In this document: positions 1,369-31,883 of the stretch, piece after piece
Layout: each line of letters starts with the position of its first letter
Position numbering within the stretch: position 1 is the stretch's first letter
Source: an uncultured Muribaculaceae bacterium
Lineage (GTDB): Bacteria; Bacillota_I; Bacilli_A; RF39; UBA660
Reading direction: 5' to 3'
DNA: 43,337 bases
Assembly: GCA_964626795.1 (NCBI GenBank)
Contig: CAZVIQ010000002.1
Span: 1-43,337 of the forward strand
Translations under genes and position numbers: made by a program
Notes under the pieces: generated by a model
Databases searched by the model: none
The model's input: the letters and a program-made list of their open reading frames with translations, nothing else
Told to the model about the DNA's origin: nothing

Positions 1369-3712
1369 AAAGTTTTTAAAAGAATACCTAAATATAGATG
1401 AACCTTTTAAGAATATTGCTGAAGATATGACTAGAATAGGTAATGAGTATGAAAAAGTTTATCCTCTTGTAGATTCTTCTTTACTTGTTATTGGTGAAAT
1501 ACTTGAAGTTAAAGATCATCCTGATTCAGATCATTTACACGTATGTATGGTGAATACAGGTAAAGAAAAACTTCAAATTGTATGTGGTGCACCTAATGTT
1601 AGAGTAGGACTTAAAACTATCGTCGCAGTATCTGGAACAAAATTGCCTGGAGGTATGATAAATAAGTCGGTAATACGTGGAATAGAATCAAATGGTATGA
1701 TGGTTGCGCTTAATGAACTTGGAATTGAAAATAAATATTTATCAGAAAAGGATATTCTAGGGATACATGAATTTGATGATGATGCTCCTATAGGAGAAGA
1801 TGCTATAAAATATATGGAACTTGATGATGAAGTTATAGATTTTGAATTAACTGCAAATAGAGGAGATCTTTTAAGTATACTTGGTCTTGCTTATGAAGTG
1901 GGAACACTTTATTCAAAAGATATCAAACCAATAGATCTATCATATACTGAAACTGGTGAAGATATAAATAATTCATTTAAAATATCAGTTAAAACAGATA
2001 AATGTTTTACATTTCTTTCTAGAAAAGTACTTAATATAGAAATTAAAGAAAGTCCTAAATTTATTAAAAACAGACTTATAGCGTCTGGTATAAGGCCAAT
2101 AAACAATATAGTTGATATAAGTAATTATGTGATGCTTGAAACAGGGCAGCCAATGCATTTCTATGACGCTGATAAAGTAGAAGGTGAAATTGGTGTTAGA
2201 TTTGCAAAAGAAGGTGAATTATTAAAGACACTTGATGAGAAAGAAAGAGTTTTATCTGCTACTGATTTAATAATTGTAAATAAAAATGATGAAGCTATTG
2301 GACTTGCAGGTGTAATGGGTGGTTATAACACTGAGATAGAAAATACCACTAAAAATATAGTAATAGAATCTGCTATCTTTGATTCTTTTTCAGTAAGATA
2401 CACTTCTAAAAAAATATTAAGAAGTGAATCGTCAAATAGATTTGAAAAAGGTCTTGATGTAAATAGATGTTATATGGCTATGGATAGAGCATGTAACTTA
2501 CTTGAAAAGTATGCTTCAGGAACAGTAAATACTGGATTATGTGAATATAACACTCTTTCAAAGGAAAATAAAACTATTGAAATTAAAGTATCATTTATAA
2601 ATAAAATATTAGGTTTTGAAATTCCTAAGGAAGAAATTATTTCAATTTTTAACAGACTAAAATTTGAAGTTACATCTGAGGGAGAAAATTTAATCGTAAG
2701 TGTTCCTTCACGTAGAATAGATATTGAAATTAAAGAAGATCTAGTTGAAGAAGTAGGAAGAATATATGGTGTAGAAAAAGTAAAGGGTAAATTACCGGAT
2801 ACTGATTCAAAACCTGGATATGCTGATACTTATCTTAGAGATATAAAACATAAACTTGCTTCTTTGGGATTAAATGAGACTCTTACATATACTTTAGTAA
2901 ATCAAAATGAAAGTAAAGCATATACTAATGAAGAATTTGAAAGTATAAAAATATTAGATCCAATGACAGAAGAAAGAATGTATTTAAGATATAGTCTTAT
3001 ACCATCACTTTATTCTGTATACGAATATAATAAGTCTCGTAATAATAAAAATATTTCTATATTTGAAATAGGAAAAAGTTTTAAAAAAGAAACTGAGGAA
3101 TGTAAAGAAACATACAAGCTTTCAGCTTTAATGACTGGTAAGTATTATGAAGATATAAGTAAAAACAATAATGTTGACTTTTATGTTGTTAAAGGCGTAA
3201 TTGAAGAACTTTTAGATTATCATGGATATAATGGAAGATATAGTTTTGTAGAAGATTATTCATTAAAAGAACTTCATCCATATCAAAGTGCTAAAATAAT
3301 GGTAAATGGAATTACTGTTGGATATATAGGAAAACTTCATCCTAATATTACAAAAGAAGATGTGTATGTATTTGAAATTAATTTGGAAGTTTTAAGAAAT
3401 ATAAATTCTGGTAAAATAAAATATAAAGAACTTAGTAAGTATCCATCAGTTGAAAAAGATGTATCATTTATAACAGAGGATAATATAAATTCCTTAGATA
3501 TAGAAACTGCAATTAAAAAGGCTTCTTCAAATATACTTAAAGAAGTAAAAGTAGTGGATGTTTATAAAGAAGAAAATAAATATTCTATAACATATAAAAT
3601 GATATTTGAATCTTTTGATAGAACATTAACTGATGAAGAAGTACTCAGTGAATTTAATAAAATAATAGATACTGTATGTAAAAAATTTAATATTAAAATT
3701 AAAAATATGTGA
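1355..3712 (+). CDS. pheT: Phenylalanine--tRNA ligase beta subunit
   Basis: 785 aa. N-terminal tRNA-binding domain (HPDSDHLHVC, VCGAPNV), then B3/4 and B5 regions and a C-terminal FDX-ACB-like domain. Translationally coupled to pheS. Confidence 0.95.
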   Translation: MKLSKKFLKEYLNIDEPFKNIAEDMTRIGNEYEKVYPLVDSSLLVIGEILEVKDHPDSDHLHVCMVNTGKEKLQIVCGAPNVRVGLKTIVAVSGTKLPGGMINKSVIRGIESNGMMVALNELGIENKYLSEKDILGIHEFDDDAPIGEDAIKYMELDDEVIDFELTANRGDLLSILGLAYEVGTLYSKDIKPIDLSYTETGEDINNSFKISVKTDKCFTFLSRKVLNIEIKESPKFIKNRLIASGIRPINNIVDISNYVMLETGQPMHFYDADKVEGEIGVRFAKEGELLKTLDEKERVLSATDLIIVNKNDEAIGLAGVMGGYNTEIENTTKNIVIESAIFDSFSVRYTSKKILRSESSNRFEKGLDVNRCYMAMDRACNLLEKYASGTVNTGLCEYNTLSKENKTIEIKVSFINKILGFEIPKEEIISIFNRLKFEVTSEGENLIVSVPSRRIDIEIKEDLVEEVGRIYGVEKVKGKLPDTDSKPGYADTYLRDIKHKLASLGLNETLTYTLVNQNESKAYTNEEFESIKILDPMTEERMYLRYSLIPSLYSVYEYNKSRNNKNISIFEIGKSFKKETEECKETYKLSALMTGKYYEDISKNNNVDFYVVKGVIEELLDYHGYNGRYSFVEDYSLKELHPYQSAKIMVNGITVGYIGKLHPNITKEDVYVFEINLEVLRNINSGKIKYKELSKYPSVEKDVSFITEDNINSLDIETAIKKASSNILKEVKVVDVYKEENKYSITYKMIFESFDRTLTDEEVLSEFNKIIDTVCKKFNIKIKNM

Positions 3713-11088: not shown

Positions 11089-11874
11089 ATGGATTTTAAA
11101 TTTATTATTAATACTGATGTTCTTGCTATTCATTTATTAACAAAATTAAAAGATTTTAGAGAAGTAAAATATGAATTGGAAAAGTTAAGACAAATGTATC
11201 CTGAAGAGTTTAATGAACTTTTCTCTCTTAGTGTAGATAAATATTTAAATGTAGATGGAAGATTTAAACAGATGCTTGAAGAATTTAAAAAATCTGAATA
11301 TTTTAAAAAAATGTATATTGAAACAAAAAAATATAAAAGATTTGTTTTATTTGGGTGGAAATTAAATAAGAAGAGAATTAATAAGTTTCTTTCTAAGATT
11401 TTAAGAATAAATATAGACAAAACGTTAAATGTTTATATATCACATCCTTATTGTTCAATTGGATATAATTCAAAAGGAGATATATTTTGGGGACACTGGC
11501 AGGGCGAAAGGAATATAAAACATAATTTAATATATCTTGTTCATGAAGCAATGCATACAATATTACCGTATAAGAACTATTATGTAAGAGAAGATTTTGA
11601 TAAAAATCACGCAATAATAGAACTTATTTCAGAATATGAACTTAGGTACTTTTTATATAAGAAGCCTGATATGGATCAAGGGCATGAGTTTCTTCTTAAA
11701 TATAGATATAAATTATATCCATATTGGCTTAAGTATATTGGTTTATCTGAAAGCGAAATACAAAAAAGAATTAAAAATGATAAAGTGGTTAATATAGTTC
11801 TTCCTTTAGAAGAGCTTAGTAAACTTAATATATATGAATTTGTAGAGTTTATTTTAAATAAAGAAATTAAATAA
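11089..11874 (+). CDS. Hypothetical protein with an HExxH motif (possible metallopeptidase-like)
   Basis: 261-aa ORF with RBS AAAGGAG. It contains LVHEAMHTI followed by HAIIE. No signal peptide. The family is not recognised. Confidence 0.5.
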   Translation: MDFKFIINTDVLAIHLLTKLKDFREVKYELEKLRQMYPEEFNELFSLSVDKYLNVDGRFKQMLEEFKKSEYFKKMYIETKKYKRFVLFGWKLNKKRINKFLSKILRINIDKTLNVYISHPYCSIGYNSKGDIFWGHWQGERNIKHNLIYLVHEAMHTILPYKNYYVREDFDKNHAIIELISEYELRYFLYKKPDMDQGHEFLLKYRYKLYPYWLKYIGLSESEIQKRIKNDKVVNIVLPLEELSKLNIYEFVEFILNKEIK

Positions 11875-11972
11875 AATTAACTGAAAAAGTAAATAATATT
11901 AGACTTATAAAAACAGAAATATATATAATGAAGTTAAATAAAAATGAAGTATTAATAATAAAATAAAGACTT

Positions 11973-12002
11973 GAACTGGTATAATAGCCAGTTCTTTTTT
12001 TG
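11973..12002 (+). terminator. Rho-independent terminator
   Basis: GAACTGG (11973-11979) / CCAGTTC (11988-11994), an 8-nt loop, then a T8 run. Confidence 0.65.
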
Positions 12003-12065
12003 TTTGACAAAATTTTGGTCTTGTTTTGGTCTTGTTTTTGTCAATACTAATGTTTTGTTTGTCAA
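12003..12065. repeat. Cluster of short inverted and tandem repeats next to the 3' side of tRNA-Ser
   Basis: TTTGACAAAA (12003-12012) against TTTTGTCAA (12036-12044). Perfect tandem 11-mer TTTTGGTCTTG x2 (12013-12034). A third TTGTCAA at 12059-12065. Confidence 0.6.
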
Positions 12066-12119
12066 TTATTAGGCTATATAAAACAATATAAAATCTTAAT
12101 TTAACACTATAAAACAAAG

Positions 12120-12140
12120 AAAAAGCACGTGTTTACGTAC
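12120..12140 (-). terminator. Small terminator hairpin downstream of tRNA-Ser
   Basis: Minus strand reads GTACGT-aaac-ACGTGC (6 bp including one G-U) followed by U5. Confidence 0.45.
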
Positions 12141-12155
12141 TTTGATTAAAATAAG

Positions 12156-12246
12156 TGGCGGAGTAGGAGAGATTTGAACTCTCGCGCCAGTTTCCCGACC
12201 TACACCCTTAGCAGGGGCGCCTCTTCAGCCTCTTGAGTACTACTCC
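12156..12246 (-). tRNA. tRNA-Ser (anticodon GCU), class II with long variable arm and encoded CCA
   Basis: The reverse complement reads GGAGTAGTACTCAAGAGGCTGAAGAGGCGCCCCTGCTAAGGGTGTAGGTCGGGAAACTGGCGCGAGAGTTCAAATCTCTCCTACTCCGCCA. The acceptor stem GGAGTAG/CTACTCC pairs. The anticodon loop is CT-GCT-AA. A T-loop GTTCAAATC and a long extra arm are present. Confidence 0.9.
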
Positions 12247-12272
12247 AAATTTATCTGCTAATTAATAATACA

Positions 12273-12614
12273 TTATTTTTGAATATTAGTCAAGTTTAGA
12301 GTGACACCTATATTAATACAATTTTCTTCTATAAATTCACTTGGAAGTTCTAAAACATAATAAACTTTTTTATTTTTAACTATAATTCTATTAGGCTTTA
12401 AATTGTTAAAAACATAAAGAACTTTAAAATTTTTATCCATCATGATAACATCAATATTTTGAAAACAAAAGAAAGTATGTATTGAACTTACTTTTTTAAA
12501 AAGTATTCCATAATCAATTTTTTTTCTTTTAAACATAATTCCAATTAATCTTTTAAAAAAATTGTCTGCAGTAACAGTTTTAATTTTTATATTCTTTGTC
12601 ATATCAAACCACAT
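12273..12614 (-). CDS. DUF192-like small protein
   Basis: 113 aa (109 aa if ATG 12602 is the start). The pattern ADNFFKRLIGIMFKR...GILFKK..SIHTFFCFQNIDVIMMDKNFKV...YVLELPSEF matches my recollection of the DUF192/COG1430 consensus (GLM..., hMknt.hpLDhhFhD, vLEl.aG). Confidence 0.55.
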   Translation of the reverse strand: MWFDMTKNIKIKTVTADNFFKRLIGIMFKRKKIDYGILFKKVSSIHTFFCFQNIDVIMMDKNFKVLYVFNNLKPNRIIVKNKKVYYVLELPSEFIEENCINIGVTLNLTNIQK

Positions 12615-12635: not shown

Positions 12636-12664
12636 TTGACAAAAATATAAAATTCATTTAGAAT
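12636..12664 (+). promoter_or_regulatory. Candidate sigma-A promoter of the pilus operon
   Basis: TTGACA (12636-12641), a 17-nt spacer, then TAGAAT (12659-12664). RBS AGGTGAG follows at 12671-12677. Confidence 0.55.
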
Positions 12665-12681
12665 TATACTAGGTGAGACGT

Positions 12682-12879
12682 ATGTTAAATAGGTTAAATA
12701 AAAAAGGTCAAGCTTTAACAGAATACATTCTTATCATTGCATTAGTAAGTGTTATAGCAATCGCGATTGTAAACGTTTTTGGAGGATATCTTAAAGATGC
12801 CATGACAAAAACAAGTTGCAATTTAGTGAATCAATCTTATGTTGAGGGAGAAAAGCCGGGTGAAGGTTATTGTGAATAA
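12682..12879 (+). CDS. flp: Flp/Fap-family type IVb prepilin
   Basis: 65 aa from ATG 12682 (the track starts at GTG 12673). Short basic leader MLNRLNKKG, then the Flp motif QALTEYILIIALVSVIAIAIV (G at -1, E at +5, Y at +6). Confidence 0.8.
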   Translation: MLNRLNKKGQALTEYILIIALVSVIAIAIVNVFGGYLKDAMTKTSCNLVNQSYVEGEKPGEGYCE

Positions 12880-13336
12880 GAAAGCAGGTTTTACGCTGGT
12901 AGAGCTTTTAGCAACAATCGCACTTTTATCAATATTGATAGTTTTTGTTGTCCCAAAAATATACAGTTATATTCAAACAGGTACAAATAAAGCTTTAGAA
13001 CTTCAGGAGAAGAATGTAGAGGATGCTGCTAAAATATTTTTAGAAGATTATTGTAAATCACCTATAACTTTAGCTCATGCTACTCAGTGTACTAAACTTT
13101 TAAATAAAGAAATTACTTCCAGTGGTTTTGCAACTTTTGAAGGTATATTAAAATTAAGCTTTTTAATTGAAAAAGATTATATTGATCCAGTTACATTTAA
13201 AAAGAATTCTTGTGATGATACCAGCTATATAGAGTTTAATACTGATGATACAATTAAAGCATATTTAAAATGTGGTGATATAAAAACTTCAGACTGGAAT
13301 CAGGAAAAATTAAATGATGCAAAACCTAATGAATAA
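12872..13336 (+). CDS. Type IV pilin/pseudopilin with a class III (prepilin-type N-terminal cleavage/methylation) signal
   Basis: (V)NKKAG|FTLVELLATIALLSILIVFVVP is a canonical GFTLxE motif. GTG 12872 is in frame and overlaps the flp stop (12877-12879). The track's upstream start at 12839 would lie inside flp. The globular part has four Cys. Confidence 0.8.
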   Translation: MNKKAGFTLVELLATIALLSILIVFVVPKIYSYIQTGTNKALELQEKNVEDAAKIFLEDYCKSPITLAHATQCTKLLNKEITSSGFATFEGILKLSFLIEKDYIDPVTFKKNSCDDTSYIEFNTDDTIKAYLKCGDIKTSDWNQEKLNDAKPNE

Positions 13337-13691
13337 AAAAAAGAAAGGACAAGCGCTGGTAGAATTTATTATTATATTACCAATTTTCTTATTCTTAATA
13401 TTTGGATTAATAGATTTTGGAAAGATACTTTATATTAAAAATGAACTTACTGTTTTATTACCCGAAGTTAAAGAAATGTATAAGGATAAAACTTATGAAG
13501 AAATTGAAAAGTATGTTAGAAAGAATAATAAGGATAATAAGATTAGTATAACGACTAAAGATGAGAATGTTACTTTTGAAATTTATAGAAATTTAAATAT
13601 TGTAACACCGGGGCTTAATCTTATAATTGGTAATCCGTATAAAGTTACTGCTTCGCTTATTATTAATAATGAGAGTACTGAAAAAGAATGA
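13314..13691 (+). CDS. tadE: TadE-like pseudopilin
   Basis: MNKKKKG|QALVEFIIILPIFLFLIFGLIDFG matches the TadE N-terminal signature. The start is either 13314 or 13329. It overlaps the preceding pilin gene. Confidence 0.75.
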   Translation: MMQNLMNKKKKGQALVEFIIILPIFLFLIFGLIDFGKILYIKNELTVLLPEVKEMYKDKTYEEIEKYVRKNNKDNKISITTKDENVTFEIYRNLNIVTPGLNLIIGNPYKVTASLIINNESTEKE

Positions 13692-13980
13692 TGGTCAAAT
13701 CTTAGTGATGTTTCTTATGCTTCTTCCTGTTATGATAATGCTTATAATGTTGGTAGTAGATACAGGCTTCATGATTAATAGAAATCTTAGTATAAAAAGT
13801 GTTATAAATAATGAAGAAGATATTGCTAAAATAGAAGTGGAACTTGGTAGAAATAAAATAAATTATGATAGTCTGGAAAAGAAAGATGATTGCATAATAG
13901 TAAATTCAACTGTAAAGGCTCTTTTTGGAAAGATAATTGGAAAAAAAGAATATAAAATAGTTGTAAAAAACTGTAAATAA
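13669..13980 (+). CDS. TadG/TadF-like (Tad_N type) pilus assembly protein
   Basis: From ATG 13669: MRVLKKNDGQILVMFLMLLPVMIMLIMLVVDTG. This fits the G-x-hydrophobic...LLP...VDxG pattern of TadE/G-like N-termini. It overlaps the tadE end. The track start at 13627 is probably too far upstream. Confidence 0.6.
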   Translation: MRVLKKNDGQILVMFLMLLPVMIMLIMLVVDTGFMINRNLSIKSVINNEEDIAKIEVELGRNKINYDSLEKKDDCIIVNSTVKALFGKIIGKKEYKIVVKNCK

Positions 13981-13991
13981 AGAGGGATGTT

Positions 13992-14762
13992 ATGAAAGGG
14001 ATAAAAGGAAAAAGTCTTTGTATCTATTCTCCTAAAGGTGGAATAGGTAAAACTATTTTGGTTTCTAATCTAGGTGCAGTGGCAAGTAAGATGAATAAAA
14101 AAGTACTGCTTCTGGATTTTGATTTATATTTTGGGTGTTTATCCATGTTCATAAATGAAAATATTACCAAGACAGTATTTAATCTAGCAGATGATTTAAA
14201 TAATAATAGATATAAGTCAATTAATGATTATATATATAAGTATAATGATAACATTGATATTCTTTGTGCACCCAAAGATCCTAGACAGGGTTCTAAAATA
14301 AGTGCCAAATATATTGATATAATTCTTGACAGAACTACAAGTATATATGATTTAGTAATAATAGACACCTATGCAAGTTCTGATGAAATAACAGTAAGTA
14401 TTTTAGATGTCATAGATAATATTCTTTTTGTAGTTGATAATGATCCTTTTACTATGAAAAACATGAGAAATATACTTAGTATTTTTAAAGATAATGAATT
14501 TGATAATTATAAAGTTTTATTAAATAATTCACTTAGTTCAAAAATATATTATTTTTCAAATGCAGAAATTAGAAAAGTAATTGATGCAAATATTGATTAT
14601 ACATTAAGTAATAATTTTTTTATGAAAGATATATCTTCAGCTATATATGATTCTACTATACCTATACTTTATAAAAATAATTATAGGAAATATAGAAATG
14701 ATATAAATAACATGAAACTTATAATTAAAGATGTAATTGAGGTTGAAGATGAAAAAGAATAG
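13992..14762 (+). CDS. tadZ: TadZ/CpaE-like ParA/MinD-family ATPase (no N-terminal receiver-like domain)
   Basis: 256 aa with a deviant Walker A, YSPKGGIGKTILVSNLG, then LLLDFD. It sits immediately upstream of tadA. Confidence 0.75.
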   Translation: MKGIKGKSLCIYSPKGGIGKTILVSNLGAVASKMNKKVLLLDFDLYFGCLSMFINENITKTVFNLADDLNNNRYKSINDYIYKYNDNIDILCAPKDPRQGSKISAKYIDIILDRTTSIYDLVIIDTYASSDEITVSILDVIDNILFVVDNDPFTMKNMRNILSIFKDNEFDNYKVLLNNSLSSKIYYFSNAEIRKVIDANIDYTLSNNFFMKDISSAIYDSTIPILYKNNYRKYRNDINNMKLIIKDVIEVEDEKE

Positions 14763-16086
14763 TTTAAAAGATGTTTTTGAAATTCAGAATAAAGATGCTT
14801 GTCCTACTATTGTTTCAGATTATGAAGTATTTAAAGATAAGGTTCTTTTGGATGAACTTAGAACAAAAATAATTTCTAATTTAATAGATAACGAACTTCC
14901 TGTTGGGATTTCTTTAATCGATTTTATAAATAATGAAATAGATAGAAGTTTAGAAGGATATGATTTATCAAATCTTGAAAGAAGTCATATTTTTAATTTA
15001 ATAGATAATGAAATTACAGGATATGGACCTTTAACAGAACTCTTAAAAGATAAAAACATTAGTGAAATAATGGTAAATGCACCAGATGAGATTTATATTG
15101 AAATAGATGGTTCTCTTGTAAAAGATTCAAGTATTTCATTTATTAATAATGAACATATAATTAGAACAATACAGAGAATGATCCAGCCTTTAGGAAGAAC
15201 AATAGATGCGACTAATCCTATGGTTGACTCAAGACTTAAAGATGGTTCAAGAATTAATGCTGTTATACCTCCTCTTAGTGTAAGAGGCCCTGTACTAACT
15301 ATAAGAAAGTTTAAAGCTTCTTTAGAAACAGCTGATGATTTACTTAGAATGGGTACTTTTACTCCATATATGGCAAGATTTTTAGAAGCAGCAGTTCAGG
15401 CTAAACTTAATATTATAATATCTGGAGGTACAGGAAGTGGTAAAACTACACTTCTTAATATCTTAAGTTCGTTTATAAATAATAATGAAAGAATTATTAC
15501 AATAGAAGATGCAGCAGAACTTAAACTTCGTCAAAGTCATGTTATTTCTTTAGAAACCAGAGTAATGAATTATGACTCTGATGGTGAAGTAACAATTAGA
15601 GATTTAGTGATAAATTCACTTCGTATGAGACCAGATAGAATTATAGTAGGTGAAGTTCGTGGTAAAGAAGCGTTTGATATGCTTCAAGCAATGAATACAG
15701 GTCATGACGGCTCTCTTTCAACACTTCATGCAAATGGAGTAATGGATGCTTTAAATAGACTTGAGACAATGGTACTGATGAGTGGTATAGAAATTCCAAT
15801 TAAAGCAATAAGAGAATATATATTTAATGCTATAGATATTGTTATAAATATTGAAAGATTAAGTGATGGAAGAAGAAAAATTCTAAAGATAAGTGAACTT
15901 AAATCAATGGAAAATGGGGATATAATTCTTGAAGATATCTTTGCGTTTACTGAAAAAGGTCTTACAAAAAATGGAGAAGTAGATGGAGAATTTATACTTT
16001 ATGAAAAAGTTCCTAAAGTTTTAAAGAAAATTAGAAGTAAAGGAATAAATTCTATAGATTTTATGTTTGAAAAAGTAGAGAGGTAA
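14749..16086 (+). CDS. tadA: TadA/CpaF secretion ATPase
   Basis: Walker A GGTGSGKTT, Asp box ITIEDAAEL, Walker B RPDRIIVGEVRG and His box NTGHDGSLSTLHAN, plus ISEIMVN. I prefer ATG 14749 (RBS GAGG) over the track's TTG at 14737. Confidence 0.9.
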   Translation: MKKNSLKDVFEIQNKDACPTIVSDYEVFKDKVLLDELRTKIISNLIDNELPVGISLIDFINNEIDRSLEGYDLSNLERSHIFNLIDNEITGYGPLTELLKDKNISEIMVNAPDEIYIEIDGSLVKDSSISFINNEHIIRTIQRMIQPLGRTIDATNPMVDSRLKDGSRINAVIPPLSVRGPVLTIRKFKASLETADDLLRMGTFTPYMARFLEAAVQAKLNIIISGGTGSGKTTLLNILSSFINNNERIITIEDAAELKLRQSHVISLETRVMNYDSDGEVTIRDLVINSLRMRPDRIIVGEVRGKEAFDMLQAMNTGHDGSLSTLHANGVMDALNRLETMVLMSGIEIPIKAIREYIFNAIDIVINIERLSDGRRKILKISELKSMENGDIILEDIFAFTEKGLTKNGEVDGEFILYEKVPKVLKKIRSKGINSIDFMFEKVER

Positions 16087-16088
16087 TT

Positions 16089-17099
16089 ATGGATAAGATA
16101 AGAATACTTGAAATATTAATTACTCAGATGATAATTGTTTTATCATTAGTTTTTATTATTATCTCACTTCTTATCGTTCGTAAAAATAATAAAATAATAA
16201 AGAAATTTAATAATTATACTGTTAAATCAATAAAAAGGGCTAATGTATCTTTTTTTGATAAGCTTATTTATATGATGGAATATATAATATCTAAGAATGC
16301 TGAAGTATTAAGAAAACTTAGATTTATGACTAGATATGCTAAAAAGTATGATAAACATTTAACTTTTGAAGAACTTAAGAATAAAGATGGTTTTTATATA
16401 CTTTCTACTAAGTTTATGATGACTTTTTTTATAGTACTTTTGTATTTTTTAAATCAGGTATTCAGATATAAAGATATAACTTTTGGAGGTATATTTTTAT
16501 CTGGAATACTTGGATATTTTATAACTGATATATTTCTTTTACTTAATTATATGAAGAAGAAAAAAGAGATTGAAGAAGATCTTTTAAAAGCAATCATGGT
16601 AATGAACAGTGCATTTAAAAGTGGTAGAAGTTTAGTTCAGGCAATTGAAATCGTTAAAGATGAACTTACTGGGGCGATAAGTGATGAATTTAAGAAAATA
16701 TATCTTGATATTTCTTATGGGCTTAGTGTTGAAACAGTATTTGAAAGATTTTATCAAAGAATAAAGCTTGAGGAAGCAAAATATATTTCAAGTAGTTTAA
16801 CTTTACTTAATCAAACAGGAGGAAATATTACTAAAGTATTTGAATCAATAGAAAAAGAATTTTATAGTAGAAAAAAACTTGATAATGAATTAAAAACTAT
16901 GACTGCTTCAAGTGTTTTTGTTTTTAGAACGTTATTATTTATGCCTTTTATAGTGTGTCTTGTAATATTTATATTAAATAATAATTATTTTGATCCTCTT
17001 TTTAACTCTGGATTAGGAAAAATAATTCTTGCTTTAATAGGAATACTTTATTTAATATATATAATAATTATTAAAAGAATAATAAAGGTGGAATTATAA
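16089..17099 (+). CDS. tadB: TadB-like platform protein (T2SS F-domain)
   Basis: 336 aa. Polytopic, with a cytoplasmic helical domain (LLKAIMVMNSAFKSGRSLVQAIE...) flanked by TM segments. Its position follows tadA. Confidence 0.75.
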   Translation: MDKIRILEILITQMIIVLSLVFIIISLLIVRKNNKIIKKFNNYTVKSIKRANVSFFDKLIYMMEYIISKNAEVLRKLRFMTRYAKKYDKHLTFEELKNKDGFYILSTKFMMTFFIVLLYFLNQVFRYKDITFGGIFLSGILGYFITDIFLLLNYMKKKKEIEEDLLKAIMVMNSAFKSGRSLVQAIEIVKDELTGAISDEFKKIYLDISYGLSVETVFERFYQRIKLEEAKYISSSLTLLNQTGGNITKVFESIEKEFYSRKKLDNELKTMTASSVFVFRTLLFMPFIVCLVIFILNNNYFDPLFNSGLGKIILALIGILYLIYIIIIKRIIKVEL

Positions 17100-17797
17100 T
17101 GAAAAATGAGATTTTAATTGAAAAAATATATTCTGCCAAGAGTATAGAAAAAATAAAAAAGAAAGTTAAACTTTTAGGTATTAATTCAAAAATAAATGCA
17201 ATAGAATTTCTCAATTTAAGACTTATGCTATGTTTCTTAGTTTTTATATCGCTTCTTTATTTTTCAGAGTTACCTTTTATATATGCACCTTTAGTTACAA
17301 TTATTATTTATATTGCTTTTGAATATATTATAATTGACTACCAAATAAAAAATAGAATAAGAAAACTAGATAAAGATGCATTATTCTTTTTTGAAATATT
17401 AGCTTTATCACTTGAAGTAGGAAGAAATTTAAAGGGTGCATTAGATCTTACCGTTAAAAGTATTAAAAATGACTTATCTGATGAGTTTGGGATAGTAATA
17501 GAAGAAGTAAATTATGGTAAAAGTTTAAATGAAGCACTTGTAAAAATGAAAGAAAGAATACCAAGTGAAACTGTAAATAATGTAATACTAAATATTACTC
17601 AATCAAATACTTTTGGAACTTCAATTATAGATACACTTCATCAGCAGGTAGCGTATATCAGAGATAAAAAATTCTTAGAAACAAAAGCTATAATTAATAA
17701 GATGCCAATTAAAATAAGTGTTATATCTGTAGTACTGTTTCTTCCAATTATGCTTTTACTTTTACTTGGACCTATACTTATAGATTTTATGAAGTAA
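17099..17797 (+). CDS. tadC: TadC-like platform protein (T2SS F-domain)
   Basis: 232 aa with the same TM - helical domain (FFEILALSLEVGRNLKGALD...) - TM architecture. ATGA overlap with tadB. Confidence 0.7.
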   Translation: MKNEILIEKIYSAKSIEKIKKKVKLLGINSKINAIEFLNLRLMLCFLVFISLLYFSELPFIYAPLVTIIIYIAFEYIIIDYQIKNRIRKLDKDALFFFEILALSLEVGRNLKGALDLTVKSIKNDLSDEFGIVIEEVNYGKSLNEALVKMKERIPSETVNNVILNITQSNTFGTSIIDTLHQQVAYIRDKKFLETKAIINKMPIKISVISVVLFLPIMLLLLLGPILIDFMK

Positions 17798-18227: not shown

Positions 18228-18926
18228 ATGATAAAATTCGGCAATAAATCGTTAGAAAGTTTTATACAGTTTAAATTAAATAAAACAAATAATAATTTTA
18301 CTGAAAAAGAGTTGAAGAGCATTAAGACTTTAGACTTGAATCCTATAGATATTGATTCTAATTATAGTAGAATCAATCTTGAAGATTTAAAATATTTTCC
18401 CAATTTAAAATATCTGACTATATCAAATATGCATGTTGATATAGCTTCTTTTGCGTTTATATTAAGATTAGAACATTTAGTAAGTCTAACTTTTATTAAT
18501 TCCACATTTCAGGATTTGTCAATTTTGTCTAATTTTAAACTAGAACATATTGGTTTTATTAATTCAAATCTTGAAGATTTAGGGATTATAAATAGAGTAA
18601 AGAGTTTAAAAGAGTTAACTTTAATTAATTATAAAGATATAGATTTATCATATTTTATAAATTTAAATTTAATTTCATTGGAATTATCAAACAGTACAGT
18701 TAAGAATGAGAATGGTATTGGTGAACTTAGTAATTTAAGTAAACTTATTGTATGTAATACTAATATCATGAATTTAAACTTTTTAAACAAACTTAAGAAA
18801 TTAAAAGAACTTTATATTACAAAGACACAATATATTGCTAATAAAATGATTATAAATAATTTAGTTAAAAATAAAGTTTCAGTATACATTGATAATAATA
18901 TATTAATTAATAAAGGAGAATTATAA
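18228..18926 (+). CDS. Leucine-rich repeat protein without a signal peptide
   Basis: 232 aa with about seven repeats of roughly 22 residues (LxxLxxLxLxNxxIxDLxxL type), e.g. LKYFPNLKYLTISNMHV and LSNLSKLIVCNTNIMNLNFLNKLKKLKELYI. RBS AGGAG. Confidence 0.75.
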   Translation: MIKFGNKSLESFIQFKLNKTNNNFTEKELKSIKTLDLNPIDIDSNYSRINLEDLKYFPNLKYLTISNMHVDIASFAFILRLEHLVSLTFINSTFQDLSILSNFKLEHIGFINSNLEDLGIINRVKSLKELTLINYKDIDLSYFINLNLISLELSNSTVKNENGIGELSNLSKLIVCNTNIMNLNFLNKLKKLKELYITKTQYIANKMIINNLVKNKVSVYIDNNILINKGEL

Positions 18927-20419
18927 TGATATTTTCAAATAAAATAATTGATCTTAAATATTTTAATCCTACTCTTATTAATTATATAAATGATACTGTT
19001 AAAAACAATGCTTTTTTAGGTACAACTATTGTTTTTGAAAGTACAAAAGGTTTAACGTCAGAAATGGTTGAACTTATTAATAAGTCTTCTAAGCTTAAAT
19101 TTAGAATATCTGGTGCTTTTGATTCCAAAAGAATAGAATCAAAAAAAATAAGTAAAAAACAGATTGAAGAAGAATATATCGAACCAGTTACTTATTCTAG
19201 AGAAGAACTTTTTAATATTTTAATAGTTATTGAAAGAATGGAAGAGAGTATTCCAGAAGAAATTTCAGATTTAGAAAAAGCGTTATATATATATAATAAT
19301 TTAAATAAATATTTTAACTATAAATATCATAAGGATACTGTTTCTAATAAAGAAGCAAGTTCATTTAGAGGACTTGTAACTAAAAACATAAATGCTAAAG
19401 GTATTGCACTTATTTTTCAAGAATTAATGCGCAGACAGAGCATTGAAGCTCATTATGTTGAAGGGAAACTCAAAAGTGAAGAATTTGATATTCCTCATTT
19501 TTGGAATATAATTCAGATTGATGGTAAATTTATTCCTTTAGATTTATATCTTGAAATAGAAGAATCAAGAAAAGGGTATTTTGGAGAATTATTGTATTTT
19601 GGAGAAATAAATTCGTTTTCTGAGACACATGTTCCAAGTAATACAGAGATTATACAGTTCTATAACAATTCTCTTTTTGCAATTTCAAAACAAGATTTAA
19701 TAGACTCGTTTAAAAACATATTTACTAATAAAGAGTATAAATTTAAAATAAATGCTTTTAAAAGAAGTAATGGAACTGAAGGAGTGTTCTCTTTTGTAGA
19801 AAGTGAACAGTGTTTAGAAAAAGAATATCAAAAAATAATTTATTTTGATGTAGTAGGCGGCAATACAATAGAAAACCCTTCAATTTTATATCTTGATGCT
19901 AATATAGAATTTATAGAAGAAGAACTTTTTATAGATAAAGTCAAGGTTGATGAAGCTGGATATAAAATCTTATATGAGAAGGTACTGGATCCTACCAATA
20001 TAAGAACAGGGATAACGCTTAACAATGGTTATATAGGAACACTAAAAAATGAAGATAATATTTTAAAGTTCTCTTATGATAGTAAAGTAAAAGATAATAT
20101 TAAAAACTTTCAAAAACTTCTTGTAAGAAGTGATAATACTACATTTGTTTTAGAACAGTTAAATACTACTTTAGAAGGTGAAATAGTAAGTACCAATAAA
20201 TATAAAATATACGAATTATTATATAATGAAGAATACTATGTATCTGAAAAAATTATATATACTGAGAAAGATATAATTGGAAATAATAGTGCAGAATTTA
20301 TTAATAATATATTGTCTGTTAAAAATATTAATAATGCTGTACTTTATAAAAGTGGTTATTTGGGATATTTTAATCCGGCAGAAATAAAAATAATAGATAA
20401 AAAAGAAAGCGAACAGTAA
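18926..20419 (+). CDS. Transglutaminase-like-fold protein apparently lacking the catalytic Cys, plus an unknown C-terminal half
   Basis: 497 aa, with an ATGA overlap to the LRR gene. The segment AKGIALIFQELMRRQSIEAHYVEG...PHFWNIIQIDGKFIPLDL matches the G-x-C...G-I-P-A-R-x-V-x-G...H-x-W-N...D core pattern, but Ala sits where the nucleophile Cys is expected. Confidence 0.5.
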   Translation: MIFSNKIIDLKYFNPTLINYINDTVKNNAFLGTTIVFESTKGLTSEMVELINKSSKLKFRISGAFDSKRIESKKISKKQIEEEYIEPVTYSREELFNILIVIERMEESIPEEISDLEKALYIYNNLNKYFNYKYHKDTVSNKEASSFRGLVTKNINAKGIALIFQELMRRQSIEAHYVEGKLKSEEFDIPHFWNIIQIDGKFIPLDLYLEIEESRKGYFGELLYFGEINSFSETHVPSNTEIIQFYNNSLFAISKQDLIDSFKNIFTNKEYKFKINAFKRSNGTEGVFSFVESEQCLEKEYQKIIYFDVVGGNTIENPSILYLDANIEFIEEELFIDKVKVDEAGYKILYEKVLDPTNIRTGITLNNGYIGTLKNEDNILKFSYDSKVKDNIKNFQKLLVRSDNTTFVLEQLNTTLEGEIVSTNKYKIYELLYNEEYYVSEKIIYTEKDIIGNNSAEFINNILSVKNINNAVLYKSGYLGYFNPAEIKIIDKKESEQ

Positions 20420-30119: not shown

Positions 30120-30997
30120 TGAGTAAAATAATAGTTCTTGTAGGGCCTACTGGTATTGGTAAAACTAAATTAAGCATAATGCTTGCTAAAAAATATAATG
30201 CAGAAATTATTAATACTGATAGAATGGCTATGTACAAAGAAACCTCAATTGGAACTGCAAAAGTAACTGATAAAGAAATGGAAGGTATAGTTCATTATTT
30301 TATCAGTAATATTTCACTTAATGATTACTATACAATATATGATTTTCAAAAGGAAGGTAGAAAAGTACTTGATAACCTAATAAAAAAGAATAGAAATGTA
30401 ATCGTGGTTGGAGGAAGTGGGCTATATACTAAAGCTCTTTTATATGATTATAAACTTGAAGATGAAGTTAAAATCAATGATAGTTATGAAAATCTATCTA
30501 ATGAAGAACTTAAAGCTTTAGCGGATTCAATTTCTGAAAATGATATTCATAAAAATAATAGAAAGAAATTAATTAGATTTATAAATTCATACAAATCAGG
30601 TAATTCTATTAAAAACTCTGATGAAAAAGATAAGCCTTTGTACAATTTCATTATTATAGGTTTAACTACTGAAAGAGAAGAACTTTATAAAAGACTGAAT
30701 GACAGAGTAGATAAAATGATAAAGGTTGGACTTGTAGAAGAAGCTAAAAAATTATATGAAAAAGAATATTACAGTTTAAGTAATATAATTGGATATAAAG
30801 AATTGATTCCTTATTTTAAAGGAGAATTAGATTTAGAGTCAACAATAGAAGACATAAAAAAAGATACCAGACACTATGCAAAAAGGCAATATACATGGTA
30901 CAGGCATCAATTTAATAATATTAATTGGTTTAATGTAGATTTCAATAATATAAATAATACATTTAAAGAAATAGATGAGTTTATTTCGCTTCAATAA
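30119..30997 (+). CDS. miaA: tRNA dimethylallyltransferase
   Basis: P-loop GPTGIGKT, with GGSGLY and YAKRQYTW motifs. ATGA overlap with mutL. Confidence 0.9.
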   Translation: MSKIIVLVGPTGIGKTKLSIMLAKKYNAEIINTDRMAMYKETSIGTAKVTDKEMEGIVHYFISNISLNDYYTIYDFQKEGRKVLDNLIKKNRNVIVVGGSGLYTKALLYDYKLEDEVKINDSYENLSNEELKALADSISENDIHKNNRKKLIRFINSYKSGNSIKNSDEKDKPLYNFIIIGLTTEREELYKRLNDRVDKMIKVGLVEEAKKLYEKEYYSLSNIIGYKELIPYFKGELDLESTIEDIKKDTRHYAKRQYTWYRHQFNNINWFNVDFNNINNTFKEIDEFISLQ

Positions 30998-31883
30998 AGA
31001 ACGTAGTATCAAAATTATGTTCTTTTTTATCTATTTCAATTAATTTTTCAGTACTTATTAAGAAAAATTTATCTTTTAAATCATGTTCACTGTCAGTATC
31101 ACTCCAAGTAATATCAATATGACTCCATTTATCATTAATATAAACTAAGTTCCAGATATGATTTTCAGTAGATACCTTTATATTTGGAATTCCAAGTTTG
31201 TCTAAAAATAAAGCCATTGCATCACTGTAACCACTGCATACTGCTTTTCCATCAAATAAAGCACCAGTAGCTTTTGTAGATGGACTTTTTACATCTCCGC
31301 CTAGAAAGTCATCATCATATGTTACATTATTTACTAAATAATATTTTATTTTTCTAAGATTGTTTTCAACTTCATTTTCTTTTAATTCTAACTGTTCAAT
31401 AACTTCCTTAACTTTCTCATTAAGAAGTTCTATTTCATTTTGAGTATATGATTTATGAACTGTTAAAGTTATCGTACCATATTCATCTATCGAAGTATCT
31501 AAATATGCAAAACTGTTATATGGACTAACATAGTTGTTTATTTTGCTTATTAAAGTAGTATCATTACTCATAACTCTTATATCATCAAGACATCTTTCAT
31601 ATTCATCAGGACAATAAAATGTAAATGTATCCCATCCATTATTAAGAATATTAAAATATATATTTTCTAAATCATCTTTATTCATAGGTTTGTAATCATC
31701 AAGATACATAAATCTCTTAAAATTATAATCTCTTCTATAGTCATTGCTGTCTTCAATTACTAAAGGCATATTTTTGGTGAAGAATTTAATTGTATAGTCA
31801 GTTATAGTATCAATATTAAAATATACTAAAGGTATTAGCAGTATTAAGAAAGAAATAAATATAAAACTTACTATCTTTTTCAT
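30981..31883 (-). CDS. Membrane-anchored transglutaminase-like domain protein (Cys-His-Asp triad present)
   Basis: 300 aa with an N-terminal TM segment. Core GKAVCSGYSDAMALFLDKLGIPNIKVSTENHIWNLVYINDKWSHIDITW. Its 3' end overlaps the miaA 3' end by 17 nt (convergent). Confidence 0.7.
   Translation of the reverse strand: MKKIVSFIFISFLILLIPLVYFNIDTITDYTIKFFTKNMPLVIEDSNDYRRDYNFKRFMYLDDYKPMNKDDLENIYFNILNNGWDTFTFYCPDEYERCLDDIRVMSNDTTLISKINNYVSPYNSFAYLDTSIDEYGTITLTVHKSYTQNEIELLNEKVKEVIEQLELKENEVENNLRKIKYYLVNNVTYDDDFLGGDVKSPSTKATGALFDGKAVCSGYSDAMALFLDKLGIPNIKVSTENHIWNLVYINDKWSHIDITWSDTDSEHDLKDKFFLISTEKLIEIDKKEHNFDTTFFIEAK

Follow-up and report, generated by a model that had tools for sequence, protein, structure and literature searches.

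A predicted N_methyl-class type IV pilin encoded within the Tad operon of an uncultured low-GC gut bacterium

Type IV filament systems are usually regarded as closed sets of components: Tad systems combine Flp pilins with TadE, TadF and TadG proteins and the peptidase TadV, and type IVa (T4a) pili, type II secretion systems (T2SS) and competence (Com) pili combine pilins of the N_methyl class with peptidases of the PilD/ComC type. This study concerns a Tad operon on contig CAZVIQ010000002.1, of which positions 1 to 43,337 were analysed (this whole stretch is referred to as the window). The second gene of the operon, at 12872-13336, is predicted to encode a pilin of the N_methyl class. The Tad locus and the pilin are each of a known class; the new part is the integration of an N_methyl pilin in a Tad operon. 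The reading that we favour, and to which we give about an even chance, is that the gene encodes a captured T4a-class pilin that would be matured by a shared, probably PilD-type, peptidase and would be built into the Flp pilus as a minor component, at the tip or as an adapter; we infer its cleavage, its methylation, the identity of its peptidase and its incorporation.

The locus shares with canonical Tad/Flp loci (A. actinomycetemcomitans tad, Caulobacter cpa, Bifidobacterium breve tad and Bulleidia extructa tad; PMC12786226) the genes for Flp, TadE-like proteins, TadZ, TadA and a split TadB/TadC, but differs from them in that an N_methyl pilin gene separates flp from tadE, that TadV is missing from the locus and its vicinity, and that a divergent DUF192 gene lies upstream. 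It has no secretin, as expected in a monoderm, and the gene for the peptidase may lie outside the locus (PMC6668835). In the classic surveys of Gram-positive tad operons, the pilins listed are all Flp, Flp-like or TadE-like (PMC3244431). No account of an N_methyl pilin within a Tad operon turned up in the literature searched, the coverage of which was incomplete, so that this is absence of evidence only.

With regard to minor subunits, the tips of Tad pili consist of complexes of minor pilins, which adapter pilins connect to the shaft (PMC12075869). The Myxococcus Kil (Tad) system, with its TadE/F/G tip complexes and its adapters KilK and KilO, resembles the window locus in that the window pilin is co-encoded with two TadE-like pseudopilins (PMC12075869). 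However, the known minor and adapter pilins of Tad systems belong to the TadE, TadF, TadG or Flp classes, whereas the window pilin belongs to the N_methyl class and has a head from a family without a solved relative. Minor or tip pilins of other type IV systems, such as PilA/B/C of the S. sanguinis T4a pilus, GspH-K and ComGD-GG, are pilin-like subunits of low abundance and are similar to it in carrying a class III signal, in being encoded beside a major pilin, and in being expected to prime or decorate the fibre. ComGC, GspG and PilA/PilE show the short basic leader, the G/FTLVEL motif (here and below a slash marks the predicted cleavage site), E5, P22, an alpha1 helix of ~54 residues, a beta-sheet head and a C-terminal disulfide loop, all of which are predicted for the window pilin. 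In contrast to ComGC, GspG and the T4a major pilins, it scores far below the equivalog cutoffs, has no comG, gsp or pil context, and shows no significant match of the head fold.

The pilin gene and its junctions

An earlier, sequence-only reading of the window had described a canonical GFTLVE(L) pilin inside a Tad operon, and the profile searches bear this out. The product passes both N_methyl models (PF07963, 30.9 bits with a Pfam cutoff of 21.2; TIGR02532, 25.9 bits with a cutoff of 16.3), and its neighbours are Flp and TadE-like proteins. With a profile built from the family, matches (E 1e-10 to 1e-5) were obtained to the alpha1 N-termini of solved T4a pilins, GspG, MshA and geopilin. The translation of the open reading frame (ORF), VNKKAGFTLVELLATIALLSILIVFVVPKIY..., starts with the leader VNKKAG, followed by FTLVELLATIALL... 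(also given as VNKKAG/FTLVELLATIALLSILIVFVVPKIY...); VNKKAG/FTLVELLATIALLSILIVFVVP has a basic leader that is short and ends in Gly, with Phe at +1, Glu at +5, some 20 hydrophobic residues and Pro22. The mature protein would have F1, E5 and P22, and a head with two Cys pairs, the four cysteines being C61, C73, C114 and C134, as described earlier. In an alignment of 12 sequences, G-1, F1, T, L, E5 and P22 were found to be invariant, as were C114 and C134, the C-terminal Cys pair.

The flanking proteins carry Tad-type motifs, KKG/QALTEY in Flp (12673/12682-12879) and G/QALVEF in the first TadE-like protein, while the second TadE-like protein has QILVMF, without Glu at +5. Two prepilin classes are therefore mixed in one operon, as the sequence-only reading held. 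The pilin itself has no match to TadE (PF07811) or Flp_Fap (PF04964) in Pfam at E<=1. Its mature form comprises 148 amino acids (aa) with a globular head in the AlphaFold2 (AF2) model, whereas Flp is headless with ~50-60 mature residues, and it is not a Flp pilin. It is neither a ComGC (NF040999, 26 bits with a cutoff of 75, N-terminus only) nor a GspG (TIGR01710, 24.9 bits with a cutoff of 88.85); the window ORFs scanned contain no comG genes and no gsp genes, and the host is monoderm. Judged by these profiles, the window pilin is a true type IV pilin and falls in the N_methyl class, which is that of T4a pili, T2SS and Com pili; it lies outside every named orthologous group.

Two other identities were tried and rejected. 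The sequence-only reading had allowed that the protein might be a divergent TadF-type pseudopilin whose FTLVE N-terminus is usual in the Tad loci of this clade. Alignment by hhalign to the TadE proteins of the clade gave a probability of only 36% over 21 signal-peptide columns, with no Pfam match to support a TadE or TadF identity, and 27 related loci pass from flp to tadE without any FTLVE gene. A chimera, in which a Tad-type head would have received a swapped N-terminus, is not in agreement with the relatives of the head domain, which are nearly all of the N_methyl type.

The predicted structure of the full prepilin (mean predicted local distance difference test, pLDDT, 85.8) comprises a helix at residues 9-62, corresponding to a 54-residue alpha1, a short helix and 4-5 beta strands; the head modelled with alpha1C reached a pLDDT of 87.6. 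As modelled, the fold is the general pilin architecture. A Foldseek search of the PDB with both AF2 models returned no match at E<0.001, the best matches (E ~0.8) being FABPs and other chance matches, and none a pilin. The comparison of structures that had been proposed earlier therefore yields the long helix and beta strands of a pilin, but no specific kinship to the ComGC, PilA, GspG or TadE folds can be claimed.

The proposal that the pilin is translated by coupling to flp was made from the overlap of its GTG start with the flp stop codon, and this overlap is real. The pilin gene, with its GTG at 12872, and flp, with its stop at 12877-12879, overlap by 8 nt (GTGAATAA), and a Shine-Dalgarno-like GGTGAAGG is located 5 nt upstream. 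Both the GTGAA(T/G)AA junction and the Shine-Dalgarno-like sequence are conserved in three related loci (L004, L005 and L172), and in a fourth, L089, the pilin starts with an ATG preceded by GGTGGAGG. The overlap is retained in these four loci despite a pilin identity of only 33-50%. The upstream ATG at 12839, which is the start given by the gene caller (P0001), is not conserved in relatives. At the other end, the ATG of tadE at 13329 overlaps the TAA of the pilin gene (13334-13336) as ATGAATAA, which is the same design as that of the flp-pilin junction. A sequence scan for consensus matches revealed no terminator-like site between flp and tadC. Given these overlaps of starts and stops, the promoter-like site before flp and the lack of an internal terminator-like site, the four pilin-like genes look like one translationally coupled block.

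Distribution, ancestry and selection

Related loci were collected by exact look-ups of relatives and by a metagenome scan with a TadA alignment (80 loci, TadA 64-75% identical), and operon maps were drawn. The layout comprising a divergent DUF192 gene, flp, the N_methyl pilin gene, tadE, tadE2, tadZ, tadA, tadB and tadC is common to L004 (pilin 47% identical, TadA 80%), L005/L006 (pilin 46%, TadA 84%), L169 (pilin 98%), L172, L175 (partial) and L173/L174, and one further carrier, L089 (pilin 33%), was found among the mapped loci of the TadA scan. In 27 related loci, flp is directly followed by tadE without an N_methyl gene, and the TadE-like proteins are of the GQALVEF or GQxLVMF type. The Flp proteins of relatives are 83-84% identical to that of the window, versus 33-50% for the pilins.

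In a neighbour-joining tree of TadA, the window groups with L005, L004 and L089 in a single clade, and the sister clade lacks the insertion. The pilin gene has a G+C content (GC) of 0.28 and a G+C content at third codon positions (GC3) of 0.148, the same as its neighbours, which corresponds to a native composition. The ratio of nonsynonymous to synonymous substitution rates (dN/dS) is 0.15 between the window and L175 and 0.20 between L005 and L172, close to the value for tadE, and every carrier has an intact ORF; the gene evolves under purifying selection. As the carriers are monophyletic, the composition is native and dN/dS is low, the simplest reading is a single old capture followed by vertical inheritance under purifying selection. 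A recent horizontal insertion was rejected on the grounds of GC, GC3 and the monophyly of the carriers. The recombinant locus proposed earlier therefore survives only as an old gene capture, and neither as a recent event nor as a chimeric protein.

A word-indexed search returned 13 homologues, all 13 of which carry PF07963, and an exhaustive phmmer search with the head only returned 35 clusters at E<=1e-3 among 1.84 billion representatives, which indicates a rare family. We read 37 of its about 45 members (36 of them distinct). Almost all are prepilins of the GFTL[VI]E type, with minor variants, so the N_methyl N-terminus appears to be ancestral to the family rather than a recombinant graft, and most of those read share the motifs LEDYC...P...C and C.G....YLKCG. 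The family is small and fast-evolving and occurs in uncultured low-GC gut Bacilli. Given its full-length homologues and its dN/dS values, the window ORF is not a chance one. One homologue, P0014 (43% identical to the window pilin), is probably Tad-embedded as well, but its look-up returned no record.

Three observations concern the evolution of the inserted gene and of its neighbours. In L173/L174 (634-1506), two tandem N_methyl pilin genes encoding 127 and 155 aa are located between flp and tadE, and this pair arose as the inserted gene was duplicated in place and diversified. Between the window and L175, the synonymous divergence (dS) of the pilin gene is 0.41, more than three times that of the adjacent tadE (0.12), which suggests allele exchange or a faster turnover at the pilin gene. 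The second TadE-like protein (TadE2) is shorter in the carrier clade, with 97-100 aa versus 105-127 aa elsewhere, and the alignment shows a Cys pair only in that clade; the TadE2 of the window (13627-13980) is about 20-25 aa shorter than those of L094, L096, L097, L101, L107 and L133. These changes, being limited to the carrier clade, may be a sign that the minor pilins have co-evolved as a set.

Other related Tad operons carry further genes of this kind. In the sister clade, a pair of pseudopilin-like genes follows tadC (L091, 11063-12228; L095; L099, 12381-13524), with the motifs G/MTLLE or G/FTLME in one member and G/FVFIE in the other. The pair adjoins tadC directly in L091, and three short ORFs (11201-12288) intervene in L099. 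The G/FVFIE member has no Pfam N_methyl match and is classed only by an N-terminal profile built in this analysis. In L065 (2840-4962), from an Erysipelotrichaceae metagenome-assembled genome (MAG), an N_methyl pilin of 341 aa, the C-terminal domain of which is large, is encoded, together with a frameshifted paralogue, between tadA and tadB. From their sequences, related Tad operons look as if they had recruited N_methyl pilins independently, at three different positions.

Maturation and place in the filament

Peptidase genes were searched for with a GxGDxK regular expression and a relaxed phmmer search among all ORFs of 84 Tad loci with ~8 kb on each side. No A24 peptidase was found among the ORFs of at least 100 aa scanned in the 43-kb window (45 of the 47 listed), and no TadV-type A24 gene (short, without a methylation domain) was found within ~8 kb of any of the 84 loci. 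The only A24 proteins at these loci are three of the PilD type, with A24_N_bact and Peptidase_A24 domains and both Cys pairs, in L101, L102 and L133. Their genes adjoin that of a two-domain (T2SSF x2) PilC directly beside the Tad locus (L101, 6864-10658; L102; L133, 2709-5760), and the L101 cluster also comprises a PilB-type ATPase. No N_methyl pilin gene was found near these PilC-PilD(-PilB) clusters in L101, L102 or L133, and hence the pilins of the second type IV filament machine of L101 and L133 must be encoded elsewhere.

TadV classically has no methylation domain (PMC10191384). It can be encoded apart from the tad locus, and peptidases common to several systems are known (PMC6668835). 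Prepilin peptidases are promiscuous, and PilD has been proposed to mature some Tad pilins in Myxococcus (PMC12075869). In view of this literature, it is plausible that one PilD/ComC-type enzyme matures both pilin classes, as judged from the relatives and their short flanks. The single promiscuous peptidase of the sequence-only reading gains indirect support from the lack of TadV around the 84 loci and from the PilD-type genes adjacent to three of them; it is in the relatives, and within short flanks, that these signs are seen. Known cases of sharing include PilD, which serves both type IV pili and T2SS, the MSHA loci, which have no peptidase, and the proposed processing of KilP by PilD. The Tad loci of the window clade likewise have no dedicated peptidase nearby and sometimes a PilD-type enzyme adjacent, and one enzyme probably serves several pilin classes in this clade. 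Unlike in known sharing, such an enzyme would process Flp/TadE-type and N_methyl-type substrates from a single operon.

According to the reading that we favour, the ancestor of one subclade would have captured a pilin copy at the flp-tadE junction of a monoderm Tad (type IVc) operon, and vertical inheritance would have followed. Transcription of the pilin gene would start at the flp promoter, and its translation would be coupled to that of flp. The prepilin would insert in the membrane and be cut after Gly6 by a peptidase encoded outside the window, most likely a bifunctional enzyme of the PilD/ComC type that would also mature Flp and the TadE-like proteins. TadA/TadB/TadC would load both TadE-like pseudopilins and, as a minor tip or adapter subunit, the pilin, which would thereby add a disulfide-braced globular head to the headless Flp fibre. 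As the GFTLVE pilin gene is built into the Tad operon and kept under selection, the two classes probably share one peptidase and perhaps one filament. Hints beyond synteny are the in-situ duplication in L173, the recruitment of such pilins at other operon positions, and the TadE2 changes specific to carriers.

A narrower form of this reading is a hybrid filament with a Flp shaft and one or more N-methylated T4a-class tip or adapter pilins, all matured by a single bifunctional PilD/ComC-type peptidase; we regard it as tentative, its chances falling clearly short of even. If true, it would imply that Flp itself is N-methylated, and it would show, in a natural system, that pilins of different classes can be compatible across the Tad lineage, of archaeal derivation, and the bacterial T4a/Com lineage. 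The locus would leave the general model of how type IV filaments are assembled as it is; that peptidases are shared and that minor pilins are modular is already accepted. As a T4a-class pilin is coupled into a Tad operon under selection, the locus nevertheless offers a natural test of how specific platform and peptidase are for pilin class, and of how headless Flp fibres gain modules, for example adhesive ones. The pilin may also matter for colonisation, as the carriers are uncultured gut Bacilli.

Several points weigh against the captured-subunit reading. Foldseek found no solved pilin that resembles the head. The expression, cleavage and incorporation of the pilin are predictions from sequence. 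The window holds no peptidase gene, and the case for PilD is drawn from relatives and from flanks of ~8 kb only. Processing across classes is not guaranteed, since Flp of P. aeruginosa reportedly needs the peptidase FppA. The distant members P0007-P0012 of the head family (28-37% identical) are orphans, their genes having no pilus genes in the vicinity, which implies that the family does not depend on Tad. Finally, related genomes encode a PilB/PilC/PilD machine without nearby pilin genes, which is a possible real user of the pilin.

These last two points lead to the main alternative, which we consider less likely than the favoured reading but far from negligible: the pilin would be the substrate of a separate PilB/PilC/PilD machine (T4a-like or Com-like) elsewhere in the genome, co-regulated with Flp but absent from the Flp filament, and the pilin genes of the lineage would be scattered as orphans. 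The orphan head homologues and the PilC-PilD(-PilB) clusters beside Tad in L101 and L133, which have no local pilin genes, are in line with this, and so is the finding that for most N_methyl pilin matches in representative genomes, neither PilB/C/D nor Tad genes occur within 8 kb. A pilin that was only co-regulated with Flp would, however, not readily explain why its position and its overlaps with both flp and tadE are retained at 33-50% identity, why the gene was duplicated in tandem in situ, why TadE2 is altered specifically in the carrier clade, or why N_methyl pilins were apparently recruited independently elsewhere inside related Tad operons.

The N_methyl pilin could also be the major subunit, either of the Tad-built fibre or of another one that the same machine would assemble, with Flp as a minor or adapter subunit. 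This is very improbable: most sister loci use Flp alone, without the pilin gene; Flp is far more conserved than the pilin (83-84% versus 33-50% identity); and flp is the first gene after the promoter-like site. These facts outweigh the near-equimolar synthesis that coupling to flp could yield, the predicted full pilin architecture with a disulfide loop, as in major pilins, and the many related Tad operons that have no flp (operon maps; PMC3244431). Least credible of all is that the product is no filament subunit, but a membrane-anchored or released surface protein with a class III-like signal or a decaying, functionless insertion, for even though its head matches no solved pilin and the flp-tadE junction takes unrelated insertions, such as the 342-aa gene of L137, the low dN/dS with an intact ORF in all carriers, the invariant G-1, F1, E5 and P22 with the conserved C-terminal Cys pair, and the confident AF2 model of a long alpha1 helix and a beta sheet all speak for a pilin.

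The Tad locus and its neighbourhood

The genes of the operon follow the order flp, N_methyl pilin, two tadE-like genes, tadZ, tadA, tadB and tadC (Table 1). By its gene content, the locus is of the Tad (type IVc) kind found in monoderms, apart from the missing local TadV. The window has a G+C content of 25.5% and contains spoIIP and spoIVB among its housekeeping genes, and its host is accordingly a Firmicute of low GC that probably forms spores. The nearest named relatives of the locus components are from MAGs of uncultured Bacilli, Erysipelotrichaceae and 'Clostridium sp. CAG:524'.

Table 1. Positions of the Tad operon genes and associated features in the window
Feature	Position	Strand	Remarks
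DUF192 gene	12273..12614	-	Pfam DUF192 43.9 bits; divergent from flp
Best sigma-70-like promoter match, TTGACA-17-TAGAAT	12636..12664	+	11/12 matches; consensus match only; just upstream of flp
flp, Flp-type prepilin	12673..12879	+	likely start ATG 12682, MLNRLNKKG/QALTEYILIIALV...; Flp_Fap 26.8 bits, below cutoff 32.2
N_methyl (T4a/T2SS/Com-class) prepilin, predicted	12872-13336	+	154 aa; stop TAA 13334-13336
Predicted leader peptide (V/M-N-K-K-A-G)	12872..12889	+	cleavage predicted after Gly6; start overlaps flp stop (GTGAATAA)
tadE-like pseudopilin 1	13314..13691	+	KKG/QALVEF; Pfam TadE 40.5 bits; in-frame ATG 13329
tadE/tadF-like pseudopilin 2	13627..13980	+	NDG/QILVMF, no Glu at +5; TadE 26.0 bits, Tad 16.8 bits
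tadZ-like ParA/MinD ATPase	13992..14762	+	AAA_31 and CbiA matches
tadA/cpaF-type ATPase	14737..16086	+	T2SSE 213 bits; best NCBIfam TIGR03819 313 bits, below cutoff 373
tadB platform protein	16089..17099	+	T2SSF 56.4 bits, one domain
tadC platform protein	17099..17797	+	T2SSF 50.0 bits, one domain

The Flp pilin of the window (12682-12879) and its relatives have a conserved C-terminal Cys pair (TSCNL...GEGYCE). Classical Flp pilins are not known to have such a pair. The DUF192 gene (COG1430), a member of a family without an assigned function, is kept divergently upstream of flp throughout the clade, with or without the N_methyl pilin; it was found at this position in L004, L005/6, L089, L090, L094, L096, L100, L107, L108, L123, L129, L133, L137, L169 and L173, and may be a functional partner or regulator of the Tad system. 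Downstream of tadC, a gap of 430 nt is followed by genes for a leucine-rich repeat (LRR) protein and a transglutaminase-like protein (18228-20419), with a weak match to the Mycoplasma MAG6410 lipoprotein family, and a second transglutaminase-core protein is encoded at 30981-31883 on the minus strand. The LRR and transglutaminase-like genes are not conserved downstream of tadC in sister loci.

Further variation was observed in the related operons. In L137, one of the 27 loci without the N_methyl gene, an unrelated 342-aa gene with an apparently cytoplasmic product is located between flp and tadE (2039-3067), and insertions seem to recur at the flp-tadE junction. The TadB proteins of L065, L133, L147 and L123 have an N-terminal extension of ~170 aa that looks extracellular. 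Many related Tad operons have no flp upstream of tadE (L110-L117, L122, L126-L168), and in L164 (3920-6864) a gene for an 840-aa surface protein occupies the usual place of flp.

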